14,685 nt of DNA. It comes from Bacteriovoracaceae bacterium (GTDB taxonomy: Bacteria > Bdellovibrionota > Bacteriovoracia > Bacteriovoracales > Bacteriovoracaceae). The first letter of the stretch is position 1. Every line of letters starts with the position of its first letter. The stretch spans positions 1 to 14,685 of the forward strand of contig JBMYPC010000078.1 of NCBI GenBank assembly GCA_049599895.1. The letters are read 5' to 3'. The position numbers were made by a program. Below, piece after piece: positions 3,001 to 9,000 of this stretch.

Positions 3001-6000
3001 TTGAAAACTCAAGCTCATTATCATAGAGAAGTTTTAAAAAGTACTCATCGATACGCTTTCGTTTCTTTTCAACATTTTTCCAACTTCGCTTAATTTTTCC
3101 TTCATGCTCGTATTCCAAAAAGGCATCAATGATAATTGAAGTAAAACAATGAGCGGCGGTAGCATAATTCTTTTTTGTCACCAAAGCACCGGAACACATC
3201 ATCTTCCAAGTTCGAAGTCCCTTCTTCCTATAAAGAAGAGGGAAAACGGAGTTAAAAAATCGTTCTTATCAAAGGTACCGTTTACAACATTCGACTTGAT
3301 GGTTTGATTGCCTTCAAGTTGATTACCACAAGAAGTCAGGTTAAAGCTCAAAGCCACCATCAGAACGAGAGAAAGGAAAGAAGTGAATTTCATGAAATGC
3401 TAAATAGCATGTTCTTGATTTTTGTCGAGGAGCTCTTTCACTTTTATAAGTGTAAAAGGTTTTGACAGGTAAAAAGGTAACTATTTTTCGACTCATGAAA
3501 AGAACAACCCGTTCGAAAAATCTTCGATCACTTAATGCTGCCAGTTCTTGAGACCAACCAGACTCAACTATATATTTCCAACACAAATGCACCGCAACAA
3601 GGAATTATCTCAATGAAGACCTTCGTTATTTTAATCTGTTGGACCACTTTTATTTTCTCAAATCCTGGCTTTGCTGAAAAAAGATTCATTCGTGATGATA
3701 TTTCTGATGCGAAATTTGGGACAGAGAAGAGAGCTGAGATTGTCGCAAAAATTGCGAATCTACAGGACTCTGTTAGCAAAGACATTATCGGACAAGATCG
3801 AGTTGCCAGAATGCTTCAGGAAAGACTCATGCAATGGATGGATAACTTTGGAACGAGAAAGGCAGACCCTGTGGCGATGCACCTTATTGGCTTTCCAGGT
3901 ATTGGTAAAAGTGCAATTTTAAGAAAGATTGAAGAAAGTGGAATTAAGGTTATTCATATTGATGTTCAAGAATTTGCTGGTGAAAACGCTGAGATCGGAT
4001 CACTAAAAAGAAGCCTTTACGATATCTCACAAAAAGCAAAAGAAGAGCCTACCGTTATTATTTTTGATGAACTTGATAAAGTTCCAGAAATCGTTGGCAA
4101 AGAAGCCGCCGATGAAGAGACAAAACCTATTATCGGTCTTCTCAACAAAATCTTAACCGATGGAGAATTTCTCTACGGAACAACAAAGGTAAATCTCTCG
4201 AATACAACTGTTGTGACTGCGATGAACTTTTCACCTGAAATGATCGAAGAGTTTTCCGAAGAAGTTTTTGGAGAGAACAAAAGCTTTTATGATCTGAATA
4301 TCAATGACTTTAAAAAAATTGATGATTGGTTAAGAGCAAGTGCATCTTCCCGTGAAAAAGTACTCTCTCAACTCTTTCGCTCCAATACAGTAAGTCGTCT
4401 TTCACCCAATACTGTTATTGTGAAACCACTGAATGAAAATGACTATCGAGAAATCATTCGAAGAAATGTTGAGACTTCAATTATTTCTTCGACTTCTGAT
4501 GAAAATGCTGGAAAAAAGTTAACTGTGACCTTCACGGAAGAGTTCATTGATCTTCTCGAGAAAGTGGCTGTAAACCCTTCTTCAGGTGCTCGTGAAACCG
4601 TTTTTAGAGTCAATCTTCTTACACAACAAGTAATATCCATCGCCAGTAAATATACTGGAAAAGAAAAACTTCAAGTTAACCGACCACGTGAAATCGTAAT
4701 TGGAACAAATGCCGGTGATGATCAAATTGAGGTTAAAATTGTTGGAAAGAAGTTTTCTTCAACAGACAAGGCCCTCTATGATGACAAAACAGCTCATATC
4801 ACTTTGAATTACAACCATGACGATCGTCAGTTTGAAAGACCAGCGGGGGTTCAAAAACAAAAACCCAAATCGACTAAAAGAAAAACAGATGAAGAAGAAC
4901 AAGTTCAGAAAATCACTAAAAAAAGTATCCGAGAAGCAAGATTTCCCAAAAAAGCGATAGTTGCAAGTAATATTGCAAACAAGGTCAATGAATCAATCGT
5001 TGGGCAAGAGAACCTAACAGCCGACATTGAGAAAGGGTTCCAAAGTTTTCTCTCTAGGCCAACAGAGAGGCTTGACCGTCCAAGCTTTTCTGTTCTTGCA
5101 GGATTTCCAGGAATTGGAAAAACAAGAATTGCCGAACTCTTTGCAGAGCATGCCGATCTAAAAATCATCAAAATCAACCTTCAGGAATATGCAGGGAGTA
5201 CAGAAGATGCAGTTTTTAAGTTTCTCTCTGATCTTGAACATAAAATGGGACAGATCGAAGCTGGTGAAAAGTTTGTCCTTTTAATTGAAGAGATTGACAA
5301 AATTCCCGAAATTGACGAGAAAGGCGCCATGCAAGACCGACCAATCCTTGGGATTATCAAAGAGCTTCTTAATAGTGGAAGGGTCAAGAGAAAAATTATC
5401 TCTGGAAGCTATAGCAATGATTTCCATATTGATGTTCGACGTGCTTTTACAATGCTTACTATGAACTTTCGTCATGATCTTTTTGGCTTTGAAGCTGATC
5501 CCAGGTTAACTTCAATAAGTGATGTTATGAATGCTTGGAGATCGATTAGCGGAACCCTTAACGATCGAAAAAAAATTCTTAGTAGTCTTTTTCTCCCTGA
5601 TACGATTTCGAGAATCATAAACCAAACTCATATTGTAAAGCCTTTGAGTGAACCAGAGTACTCAAAGGTTATCGATATCACAGTCGATGGAGTTGTTGTT
5701 AAAAAGTTTATTAATCCTGAAACAGGAGTTAATAACACACAAATTGATATCAATCTCGATCGCTCATATAAAGATTACCTTTTTTCGGAATCAGTGATTC
5801 CTTCCGAAGGTGCAAGGAACACAGTCATCAGCGTTGAAACAATTCTTGGAGAAGATATAGAACAGGCAATAAACTCAATTCCACGCTCTTCTGACCTCGC
5901 AGCAGTTCCTGTTGAGTTTAAGTTTGAGTTCCGCGAGAAATCAAAAACAAAAGGAGATCGAGTTGTCCTTAAAGCAAGAGAAAAAGGATCAAAAGGAAGA

Positions 6001-9000
6001 TATCAAGTTCTTCTTGAAAAAGAAGTCATGCTTAAATTTCCTTCTCCAAAATTCTTCGGCCGTATGCCAGAAAAAAGAATTCATACATCACTACATGAGT
6101 TTGGTCACGCTTTTGCCGCAGTAAGGCTTGGAACAAGATTCACTCATGTTGTCGTCATTCCACCTAGTACAGGGACAGGTGGCTATGTGAAATTTATGCC
6201 TACAGATTCTCATGCACGAACAATGATCTCAAGGCTCCATGCAACTCTCGCAGCAAGAGCGATGGAAAAAATATTCTTTGCGCCGGATCCTCTTGCTCCA
6301 GATTCTTCACTTTACATAACCTCTGGCCCATCATCAGATATAAAACAAGCAACAAGTACCCTCCATACTATGATGCAATCTCTTGGTTTTGATCCGAGAG
6401 GAGGTGTTGCAGATAAACATTATGCTCCAACAAGGCCCTTCTTCGACAACCTGTCCCAAGCAGATGCTGATAAATATGCCATGGTCCTTCAGGATATTGA
6501 AAACCATATGATTAAAGACTTTCTCGAAGCTCATTCAAAAGAATGGTACATCAAAAAAATCACGAACCTTGCTCAAAATGGAATTATGAATGAACAAGAG
6601 TTTTATGAACTTATTGAATATGTCTACCCAGGAGAAAAAGCACAAAACTTCTCAGGGGCAACTCAGCTACGAGAAGCTTTTTCCGATATTATTGAACTTG
6701 AAAATGGAGAAATCGCAAAAGCCTCAAAACAAAAAATGGGGACGACACAGATCACTCCCAAGGAAAGTCTCGATAAATCGATCGACGCTCTTAAAAGGTC
6801 CATTCTCACTCATTTTGGCGATATTCAGACTGCACAAAAAGCAAAAAGTGATAATTGCCTCTCTTCACTAACGAGTGCAGTGAGCTCTCTCCAATAACTC
6901 CCATAATTACAAGGACTTATGAATTAAGTCCTTTGTAAAAAACCTATACAGGGTTGAAATCATTACGAAGTGCCCCTCTACAAAGAAGAAATAAGGATAA
7001 GGTAAATCATAATGGTAAATTTTAATGAATATGTCAGAGATGTTTTTTTAAAAACAAATGAGAAAAACCCTTTATTCTCATTAAGGGCCTTTGCCAAAAA
7101 ACTTGAAATCGCACCATCTACGGCAAGTGAAATCATCAGTGGAAAAAGAAGCCCAGACCTTGAGTTGGCCACAATGATCCTTCAAACTTTAAAATGCCCT
7201 GAAGATACAACACTGGAACTTCTTTCTGGACTTGAGTTAAGATTAAAAGCCCAAGAGCTCAAAAAAAAGCCAATCCTCAAAAAAATTAATAAAAGCTATA
7301 ATCAAAATACTCTTGAGATGGATCACTTTAGTGTCATTAAAGATTGGTGGCATTATGCGATTATTAATCTCATTGAACTTGAGCATTTTAAAAATGATTC
7401 ACTTTGGATCAGTTCAATGCTTGGAATCACAGAAGAGCAATGTCTTGAAGCGATTGAAAGACTAAAGAGATTAAAAATCTTAAGCGAAGTTGAAGGCAAA
7501 CTTTTCTTTGAAGCGAAGAATCTTGCCAGTCCTTCAGGTATCCCCTCACAGTCAATTCGAAGTTTTCATAAACAAATTCTTGAAAAGGCCATTACCTCAC
7601 TCGAGAAAGAATCTCTTGATGTTAGATCTCATACAAATATTATGATTCCGGCAAACACAAAAGCTTTTGCTATCGCAAGAGAAGAAATTAAAAACTTTCG
7701 AAGACGTCTTGGTACCTTACTCGAAACAGGCCCAGCTGATCGAGTTTATAACCTCTCGATTCAACTTTTCCCAATTTCGAAGAGGGCCGAATGATGAAAA
7801 TGCTAATCATAAGCCTTTTTCTTTCTACAAGTTTTAATCTCTTTTCTGGGGAATTATCCGAAGTGATGAAAAGCGCTCTCAGCTCAGATCGAATTGCAAA
7901 AAAAGTTGATGATCATTTTCGTGATCTTATGACCCAAAAAGGGACCGAAACAGGCGATGGTGGTGACTATATTAGGGCCAGCTTCATCCCCAAAGCGACA
8001 AAAATATGGATGTTAGTTGAAGACAATTTAAAATACAGACAAATTCCTGTTTGGCCTTATTATCTTAGACCAACAGAAATTCTACAAAAGATTAATATCA
8101 ACTCGATTAAACTCTCCAAAACAGATGTTGTTCTCGATAACGGCGGTTCAAGAGTTTACGGAAGAGTTCTCAATCTTAAAGACCAAGGATCGGCGCAGAT
8201 CGCTGAAAAGTACATTGACGTTTCTCAAGTTAAGTCAGAAAGAGTCCTTATTCTTTCTCAAAACGATCTTCCCACAGATCAGGTTGATCAAAAGTTTTTT
8301 CGCTTTGTAATTCACGAGGGGCTTCGCCTTGTAGGAATAAATGATGACAACTCTCTGATCACAAATAACATCATCAACCAACTTGAATGGATTCTCTCGC
8401 AAAAGCCAGACACTCCATTTAATGAAGTTTATGAAAATGATGTTATGTTCATGATTTCAGTTCCTCAATTCTCTCGCAAAGTTTTCCTTGATCAAGGAGG
8501 AGACCCAGAAGTTATTAAACAAATTCAAAATGACCTTGATGAAATCGAATCTTTTTTGCCAGAATGGACCTACACTGATCATGGTCAAAACAATATCACT
8601 CTTAAAAAGTCTCAAATACAAGAAAAGCCAAGCTTTAGAGATCGCCTTATAAACGTCATCCACACTTATAAGAAAAGTCTTAATGTCATTAAAAAGATTT
8701 CTCGATCACAAGACGATTATAAAATTAAAATTGCAGATCAGCCAGCAATCTCAAGCCAATTCATCATGGCAAAAATCGAATCAGACCTTGAAACCATGTC
8801 AAATTTTTATCGCTATACCATTGAAAAGCTTTGGCCGAATCTCTATAAAATGAGTGAGGTTCTAACCTTCAAGCTCAATGGACTCTCAAAAAACTTTAAC
8901 TTTTGTGAAAGCATTGGACTTGCCACAATCTCTCAAAAGCTTCTTTTTATTCAAGGTAAGAATATTGCTTTTATTCTTCTCAGACAAAATGTCCAAGAGC

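Follow-up and report, generated by a model that had tools for sequence, protein, structure and literature searches.

An exported-looking bacterial protein family joining two ClpB-D2-type AAA+ modules to an FtsH-type zinc protease

Relation to described AAA+ proteases and unfoldases

Bacterial ATP-dependent proteases are, to our knowledge, treated as strictly cytoplasm-facing. FtsH (MEROPS M41; TIGR01241; PDB 4eiw, 2dhr and 2di4) is membrane-anchored, faces the cytoplasm and has just one AAA+ module, which belongs to the classic clade and bears an aromatic pore loop; its hexameric ring encloses a protease chamber. The protein described here is encoded on a 14,685-nucleotide stretch of DNA from a Bacteriovoracaceae bacterium (the window) and shares with FtsH a C-terminal M41 protease with HExxH and a downstream Asp, fused behind an AAA+ module. 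Unlike FtsH, it carries one short segment of the cleavable signal type (by heuristic) and two modules of the HCLR/D2 type, with a GAR sensor 2 and no FVG pore loop, and it reaches only 43.7 bits with TIGR01241, whose cut-off is 600. Each of its modules folds like a D2 (Skd3, Z 22.3, rmsd 3.4; ClpB NBD2, Z 21.2, rmsd 3.3; ClpX, Z 19.3), and the motifs DE[IL]DK, a sensor-1 Asn and a GAR sensor 2 are held in common with Hsp100, Skd3/CLPB, ClpX and HslU. Whereas ClpA, ClpB and ClpC combine a classic-clade D1 with an HCLR-clade D2, the present protein has a duplicated D2, no match to Clp_N, no GYVG, a protease of its own and an exported look; with the ClpA model, whose cut-off is 993, it scores 40.2 bits. 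A Foldseek ranking headed by ClpC, ClpC1, ClpA and ClpB, as claimed in the genome-wide survey's note on this locus, was recovered, with E from 1.8e-17 upward; these matches do not superpose the whole chain, however, as rmsd is 19-28 A and the query TM-scores lie at 0.20-0.23.

Lon is cytoplasmic, with one module and a Ser-Lys protease; in the present protein there are two modules, and the protease is a zinc enzyme. Both join an HCLR-clade AAA+ to their own protease in one chain (excerpted text of PMC7973254; Z 16.4). Torsins and Plasmodium HSP101 resemble the protein as D2-related AAA+ enzymes directed out of the cytosol (TorsinA against module 1, Z 16.4; PTEX complex chain 6e10, Z 19.9), but both are without a protease and act in eukaryotic compartments. 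In excerpts of PMC10433460, HSP101 has a cleaved signal peptide and is located in the ER and vacuole, a counterexample to the survey's statement that Torsin is the only AAA+ of the secretory pathway. According to the excerpted part of PMC5425593, Torsins are, like the present protein, without aromatic pore loops, and differ in having no arginine finger and in requiring LAP1/LULL1 as cofactor, whereas the present protein keeps an arginine finger in each module (R262 in 54/54 aligned family members, R667 in 53/54). These fingers, and a Pfam Torsin score of 23.4 bits below the gathering cut-off of 27, led us to reject Torsin membership; the sub-threshold scores themselves (Torsin, and ClpB_D2-small at 19.7 against 21.9) were reproduced, and the likeness drawn from them is ordinary D2-clade similarity.

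A D2-type AAA+ and M41 also occur in one chain in cytoplasmic Clp-D2/FtsH-AAA/M41 chimeras of other bacteria (950-1330 aa, two AAA+ modules) and in cytoplasmic single D2+M41 relatives from phage and Bacteroidota clusters. The chimeras differ in a second module of FtsH type, and both groups differ in having no signal peptide (0/25 distant relatives). A quick tree with SH-aLRT support (76 rows, including 20/80 family members; P0139, which has no Walker A match, was left out) placed both groups outside the clade of the exported family. The proposal of a unique architecture is not supported: two AAA+ modules plus M41 are found in the chimeras as well, though these form a separate lineage in the tree. 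The literature searched yielded no published account of this family or of any exported bacterial AAA+ protease, which supports regarding the exported two-AAA+/M41 family as undescribed there; the supplementary proteomes of PMC12546842 may hold related exported ATPases.

Gene, AAA+ modules and zinc protease

The reading frame at 3613..6897 (+) is intact and encodes 1094 aa plus stop. Its start, ATG 3613, has the ribosome-binding site AAGGA 9 nt upstream, whereas the alternative in-frame ATG 3535 is without such a site; promoter and terminator scans at the gene gave no more matches than in shuffles. An AF2 model from a 54-row alignment reached pLDDT 88.7 and pTM 0.59, compared with 78 and 0.44 for the survey's model from 14 sequences. 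The survey's motif positions were correct (GFPGIGKS at 93, IIFDELDK at 149-156, GFPGIGKT at 497, LLIEEIDK at 556-563, HEFGH at 828), as were its Pfam matches (AAA 90-206, 2.8e-19, in 2 stretches; Peptidase_M41 820-976, 5.1e-12), and its claim that two AAA+ modules and an M41 protease, all of them intact, are fused in one chain was borne out, with ATPase residues conserved in 52-54/54 members and zinc residues in 54/54.

Alignment, profiles and fold matches place a ClpB-D2/HCLR-type module 1 at 3760..4650 (+), in which K99 belongs to Walker A and D152-E153 to Walker B, N205 is sensor 1, R262 the arginine finger and R327 sensor 2, and a copy of it, module 2, at 4966..5877 (+), with K503, E559-E560, N618, R667 and R735 in the same roles. 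K99, E153 and N205, like R262, are found in 54/54 members and R327 in 52/54; in module 2, N618 is found in 54/54 and K503, E560 and R735, like R667, in 53/54. Module 1 is preceded by family-specific helices with I-x-x-A-R-F-G at 3691..3759 (+), repeated ahead of module 2 (alignment, AF2 model), and is followed in the model by a beta-rich small-domain extension (355-410) and a low-confidence linker (411-435) at 4675..4917 (+). The modules share 28% identity over 324 aa (E 2e-35), and the profiles of both match ClpA-D2, ClpB-D2, ClpX and Lon of the same genome, never ClpA/B-D1. Judged by sequence, both come from one module of ClpB-D2 type (HCLR) that was duplicated in tandem in a single-module D2-M41 lineage already bearing a signal peptide.

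In the stretch from Walker A to Walker B, the motif G-[YF]-[VIL]-G is found in 0/54 members in module 1 and 0/54 in module 2, and GYVG is present in ClpA, ClpB and ClpX of the same genome. The pore-1 loop of module 2 is ~5 residues long with an aromatic residue in 0/54; that of module 1 is variable and without aromatic-hydrophobic-Gly. The survey's ClpA/ClpC-like two-ring unfoldase is therefore not supported, as both modules are D2/HCLR duplicates without the aromatic pore loop by which threading unfoldases grip substrate. Walker B reads Glu-Glu in module 2 in 54/54 (E559) and in module 1 in 31/54. Because the aromatic pore loop is gone and Walker B carries Glu-Glu, the motors more likely act as a slow, weakly gripping nucleotide switch than as a strong ClpA-like unfoldase. 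Conserved aromatics elsewhere, such as that in the post-Walker-B loop of module 2 (43/54), could stand in for the missing pore loop; in that case threading would be favored over gating. Assembly into a ring is predicted from the arginine fingers and sensor 2, which are conserved.

Alignment further reveals a highly conserved post-sensor-1 insert, F-G-F-x-A-D-P-R-L-T (624-633), at 5482..5511 (+). Its FGF (624-626) falls in the same insert as the ClpP-docking loop of ClpA and ClpC, but it lies 6 residues past the Asn versus 11 in the genome's ClpA, and single-module relatives carry YGD or YGR at this position; a ClpP-docking (IGF/IGL) role was judged unlikely on both grounds.

The M41 (FtsH-type) domain lies at 6046..6627 (+) by Pfam, alignment and fold match. 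H828, E829, H832, E885 and D909 are found in 54/54 members, D909 aligns with the ND motif of Thermus thermophilus FtsH, and over 164 residues the fold matches that of 2di4, the protease domain of FtsH (Z 13.3, rmsd 3.3); as read from the alignment, the zinc site is complete.

Family distribution, export signal and C-terminal cysteine

A homologue search returned 55 matches (the query, 53 other full-length proteins and 1 partial), and a second search added 26 full-length two-module proteins, giving a family of 80 full-length members in place of the "only 15 other clusters" counted before. Members show 31-43% identity, with a mean column identity of 38%; 21/26 of the further members retain two canonical Walker A motifs, and P-loops or HExxH are degenerate in some distant members and single-module relatives. 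The gene is carried by 13/401 genomes of the query's phylum, 3/251 Elusimicrobiota genomes and 4/201 genomes of a further set, and no conserved neighbor genes were seen in the carrier loci compared. The family is patchy and the gene a rare accessory one; the same genome also encodes normal membrane FtsH, ClpA, ClpB, ClpX and Lon. All named carriers are uncultured MAGs, so that predation is read from their lineage. A phage tblastn gave only 3 weak partial matches, and the fold matches in BFVD were to Clp, FtsH and Lon proteins of a generic kind. A search for shorter proteins gave 5 matches (2 labelled partial, 2 on contigs <1.8 kb, and one of 474 aa from a record in which the gene at this locus is full-length but masked in places), and among these 5 there was no sign of a truly split form.

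The N-terminus (residues 1-21; 3613..3675, +) is a predicted Sec/SPI-type signal peptide with a cut after G-F-A, in agreement with the survey's note. This rests on family counts and on a heuristic other than SignalP, scored with a control set of distant relatives. An uncharged hydrophobic N-terminal core was detected in 53/54 aligned members versus 0/25 distant relatives; among the 53, 48 have a net-positive n-region and none a negative one, 51 have an SPI-like cleavage site and 46 an Ala at -1. No Tat or lipobox pattern was matched among the 54 aligned members. In the independent set of further members, 24/26 pass the heuristic. The query's core is short (19-residue hydropathy mean 1.46), and past residue 45 the best 19-residue window reaches 0.99. 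Counting against export, 22/53 members have a net positive charge right after the predicted cut. Together, the counts support a protein that looks exported by a Sec-type signal and has no membrane anchor.

The family Cys count also revealed a lone C-terminal C1082 in a C-x-x-L-x tag (6856..6870, +), of which the query's CLSSL is a weak instance. A Cys within the last 40 aa is found in 48/54 members versus 0.6 expected, with the consensus C-x-x-L-F, and one carrier genome (G094) encodes a ClpB-like protein with a signal peptide whose sole Cys lies in CAKLL, 32 aa from the end. The tag is weakly enriched in the query genome (9/507 at the C-terminus versus 2-5 in mid-protein windows) and absent from 3/3 Elusimicrobiota carriers read. 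Pfam scanning of 26 candidates (23/25 tagged proteins, 2 family members being left out, plus 3 gene neighbors) gave no match for 17, peptidases for 4 and other or false positives for 5, with no sign of cytoplasm-acting enzymes among the 26; 8 tagged candidates of the query genome were also scanned. The tag thus occurs on ordinary secreted peptidases as well (M48, trypsin-like). In favor of a secretion route, the query genome has pseudopilin-like genes, encodes GspE/PilB-like ATPases and gives 5 matches to secretins.

Where and how the protease may act

A Sec signal alone ends in the periplasm, which is regarded as ATP-poor. An export signal on ATP motors is therefore odd, since little usable ATP is thought to be present outside the bacterial cytoplasm, and a family of ~80 proteins in which an export signal is retained together with complete ATPase sites must meet ATP outside the producer's cytoplasm. 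The reading that we favor, at a probability of just under one half, is that of a rare accessory, exported, ATP-gated zinc protease acting in an ATP-containing prey compartment. Sec would export the protease to the periplasm, where it would fold; it would leave by type II secretion or by a route marked by the lone-cysteine tag, and would stay off in the producer's ATP-poor envelope. Binding of ATP, met in the cytoplasm of the prey or in a leaky bdelloplast, would assemble it into rings and license the M41 sites to cut prey proteins. In excerpted text of a Bdellovibrio transcriptome paper, Sec secretes degrading enzymes into the cytoplasm of prey (PMC2797640); a delivery route into that compartment was not found described in the literature examined. 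The Elusimicrobiota carriers are not established predators, which counts against delivery into prey, as do the tag's weak enrichment in the query genome and its absence from the Elusimicrobiota carriers read. More tentatively, and with the odds against it, Bdellovibrionota may have a class of lone-cysteine-tagged, ATP-dependent machines that they deliver to the cytoplasm of the prey along an undescribed route, with this protein as a self-contained AAA+ protease effector using prey ATP as both fuel and arrival cue.

A processive two-ring unfoldase threading folded prey proteins into an M41 chamber within the prey cytoplasm would fit the full retention of ATP-hydrolysis motifs in both modules, a domain order in which M41 comes behind the second small domain in the manner of FtsH, and long conserved post-Walker-B loops and post-sensor-1 inserts that could grip substrate; the missing G-[YF]-[VIL]-G and pore-1 aromatics and the Glu-Glu Walker B make it unlikely, as pore loops of translocating AAA+ enzymes usually carry an aromatic residue (PMC7973254, in excerpt). 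We consider equally improbable a protease for quality control or processing that works within or upon the envelope of its producer, perhaps tethered there by its C-terminal Cys, and that runs on periplasmic or environmental ATP: the periplasmic end point of Sec signals, the tag on ordinary secreted peptidases and the gene's presence in Elusimicrobiota, whose lifestyle is not established, all speak for it, but an ATP-poor periplasm speaks against it, and housekeeping fits poorly with presence in ~1-3% of searched genomes and no conserved neighbors.

The ATP paradox would vanish if the N-terminal stretch were an uncleaved anchor and the enzyme an odd cytoplasmic FtsH/Yme1-like protease. FtsH-family enzymes are anchored at the N-terminus, the first 19 residues are strongly hydrophobic in some members (window mean >2.3 in several), and 22/53 are basic after this segment. 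We nevertheless regard this as very improbable, given positive charge ahead of the core in 48/53 and negative charge in none, cores that are often short, a signal-peptidase site next in 51/53, a stretch of freely variable length following that site, and a terminal cysteine tag common to other signal-peptide proteins. Least probable of all, the AAA+ modules would be scaffolds or decaying relics on an ATP-independent secreted metalloprotease; the lost pore loop, the altered Walker B and the degenerate motifs of some distant and single-module relatives are consistent with decay, but in both modules 52-54/54 members retain the Lys of Walker A, the catalytic Glu, the two sensor residues and the arginine finger, at 38% mean column identity.

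The family points either to protein delivery into the prey cytoplasm or to usable extracytoplasmic ATP, and offers a concrete reporter for probing both as well as a natural test of AAA+ protease function without aromatic pore loops. If it is an effector driven by prey ATP, no ATP-dependent protease of bacteria before it would have been an exported one, and, with prey ATP as the arrival cue, the predator would need no immunity protein.

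AAA+ modules and zinc protease

The genome-wide survey's note had likened the protein to a ClpA/ClpC-type two-ring motor, a comparison that does not hold: the two modules of the query are duplicates of each other (28% identity over 324 aa, E 2e-35), both match only the D2 domains of this genome's ClpA and ClpB, full-length ClpA fits the AF2 model (pLDDT 88.7, pTM 0.59) only with an rmsd of 16, and a GYVG-type pore loop occurs in 0/54 rows of the family alignment in either module. Profiles of both modules match ClpA-D2, ClpB-D2, ClpX and Lon of this genome, that of module 1 also matches FtsH weakly, and neither matches the genome's ClpA/B-D1; the AF2 model matches Skd3, ClpB NBD2, ClpX and HslU at rmsd 3.3-4.4. 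A quick tree placed 40/40 family modules with eight single-module relatives in one group (SH-aLRT 96), separate from ClpA/B-D2 and from Clp-FtsH chimeras. Signal peptides are present in three of these single-module lines, P0105, P0115 and P0187 (the cluster mate of P0100), so export probably preceded the module duplication.

Both modules retain the Walker A lysine, catalytic glutamate, sensor 1, arginine finger and sensor 2 in 52-54 of the 54 rows. At the first acidic position of Walker B, all 54 module-2 copies and 31 of 54 module-1 copies have Glu, and the single-module relatives P0100, P0105, P0111 and P0187 have Asp. The module-2 pore loop comprises about five residues without an aromatic, and the conserved Phe/Tyr immediately preceding the pore-loop position is, judging by its register with the MSEY of ClpA, a structural residue. 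This residue could nonetheless be co-opted, and the long conserved loops past Walker B and past sensor 1 could act as stand-in substrate contacts. The protease domain aligns with that of FtsH at Z 13.3, and His828, Glu829, His832, Glu885 and Asp909 are invariant across the family alignment. Asp909 is in register with the Asp of the FtsH ND motif, the third zinc ligand.

Distribution and genomic setting

The family gene, at 3613-6897 (+) on contig C78 (the whole window) of a 3.27-Mb genome, encodes 1094 residues; a ribosome-binding site precedes the ATG at 3613 and none the upstream in-frame ATG, and GC content is 38.7% vs 37.7% genome-wide. A rescan reproduced the survey's Pfam values for the protein, and no NCBIfam model reached its own cut-off. 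A first homologue search returned 55 matches, comprising the query, 53 full-length relatives (32-44% identity) and one partial match excluded from the 54-row alignment; a second search added 26 full-length two-module proteins. In genome samples, where a miss is not proof of absence, the gene was detected in 13/401 genomes of the phylum, 4/201 of the taxonomic family and 3/251 of an Elusimicrobia carrier's phylum. The relatives at 15 loci belong to MAGs recorded as Bacteriovoracia, Bacteriovoracaceae, Bdellovibrionales, Bdellovibrionia, Elusimicrobia or plain bacterium, the two at 44% identity being Bacteriovoracia and Bacteriovoracaceae records, and the host is presumably a member of the Bdellovibrionota and, judged by lineage only, predatory. 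Since the same genome encodes its own membrane FtsH, ClpA, ClpB, ClpX and Lon, the family gene is accessory.

Gene neighborhood varies among the 25 loci compared. One genome (G010, L013/L016) has the gene split across two frames at the M41 domain, and in another (G158, L004/L015) about 19 kb separates two paralogues, both intact. On C78, a trypsin-like gene at 2674-3592 (-) is broken into fragments in differing frames and is paralogous (32% over 105 aa, 23% over 73 aa) to an intact signal-peptide trypsin-like gene at 9660-11081. The stretch 7012-9663 (+) begins with a DUF4423/TIGR02147 helix-turn-helix gene, which has five tblastn matches across the genome, followed by two signal-peptide genes (500 and 119 aa) without a match in the Pfam scan. 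Separate flagellin genes flank the region at 259-1098 and 11385-12215 (-).

Export signal and C-terminal cysteine tag

Export was assessed heuristically, as an uncharged hydrophobic 9-mer (mean >= 1.95) within the first 32 residues, with distant relatives as control. Such a segment is present in 53/54 members vs 0/25 distant D2-M41 or Clp-FtsH relatives, and in 24 of the 26 additional members; the sole failure among the 54, P0053, begins near the conserved core, perhaps because its start was misassigned. The n-region of the 53 carries a net positive charge in 48 cases and a negative one in no case; an SPI-like site is present in 51, and position -1 is Ala in 46. Tat and lipobox patterns matched no member. 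The query has no membrane segment beyond the signal. Counting against export, the 10 residues after the cut are net basic in 22/53. Taken together, these sequence features suggest that family proteins are cleaved and exported.

A cysteine lies within the last 40 residues in 48/54 members, with the consensus C-x-x-L-[FL], whereas the Cys content elsewhere in the chain predicts 0.6; 24 of the 26 additional members likewise have such a Cys. A long N-terminal extension is seen in five of the six tagless members and in all three Elusimicrobiota loci read, which also lack the tag. Across 1.2 Mb of four carrier genomes, 252 signal-peptide ORFs carry the motif C-terminally in 9 (two being family members), near the N-terminus in 12 and in mid-protein windows in 0-1, vs 3, 8 and 5-11, respectively, in 426 ORFs without a signal; enrichment in this genome is weak. 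Of 24 P-loop ORFs in these stretches and three more loci, nine have a signal-like start: eight family members and the ClpB-like P0188 (L050:5654-8803, -; 1050 aa), which has a signal peptide and its sole Cys in CAKLL near the C-terminus. P0188 has an intact D2 with GYVG, and its D1 region gives no Walker A match. On another contig of the present genome (C71, L094:74-1405, -), a 444-aa signal-peptide protein without a match in the Pfam scan contains GLSGSGKS, which resembles a Walker A motif, and has a Cys right after the predicted cut.

Destination and relation to known AAA+ proteases

Complete nucleotide sites retained across a divergent, exported-looking family of 80 proteins imply ATP at the destination, and for a periplasmic predator the candidate ATP-containing sites are the bdelloplast and the cytoplasm of the prey. 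According to a transcriptome study (PMC2797640), degradative enzymes reach the prey cytoplasm by way of Sec, and a 2026 review (PMC13689555) discusses how predators escape self-damage by their own secreted enzymes and has in its reference list a paper of 1986 about ATP transport by a B. bacteriovorus system. The genome carries type II secretion and type IV pilus-like ATPases, prepilin-like genes and five secretin matches. On these grounds we favor an exported, ATP-gated protease working in prey, with a probability of just under one half; its ring assembly and activity are likewise presumed.

The retained nucleotide sites make an ATP-independent enzyme highly improbable. An anchored enzyme facing the cytoplasm would suit the basic residues after the cut, and the SPI-like sites leave it little better placed. 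An envelope-resident enzyme would share the export signals, and we consider it unlikely; equally unlikely is a processive unfoldase-protease in prey, which would share the ATP-containing destination and have to engage substrates without GYVG loops.

Like FtsH and Lon, the favored ATP-gated protease has motor and protease in a single chain; membership in FtsH, Lon, ClpA/B/C or Torsin was rejected on membership tests, with AAA+ clade definitions taken from PMC7973254. Seven Clp-D2/FtsH chimeras are also two-module M41 proteins, from the cytoplasm of other bacteria, and single D2-M41 clusters are found in phages and Bacteroidota. One such chimera, P0170, has an N-terminal NADAR-DarT1 domain, which hints at a conflict role for the chimera family. 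Signal-like starts also occur in P0168, a 558-aa FtsH-type AAA+M41 protein, and P0185 (2124 aa, six AAA stretches). A 68-member ESM Atlas cluster (~1292 aa; M41, AAA_2 and ClpB_D2-small), with Bdellovibrionota its commonest taxon among just four members of known phylum, is possibly a second Clp-M41 fusion family. Torsin (PMC5425593) and HSP101 (PMC10433460) are described as eukaryotic AAA+ enzymes with signal peptides. A 2025 proteome study of Bdellovibrio predation (PMC12546842) mentions none of Clp, AAA and FtsH in its main text, a preprint on giant genes contributed nothing of relevance, and the literature searched, with limited coverage of subscription journals, held no description of the family. 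The family is real, undescribed as far as searched, and a variant of the AAA+/M41 proteases, with export as its own surprising feature.
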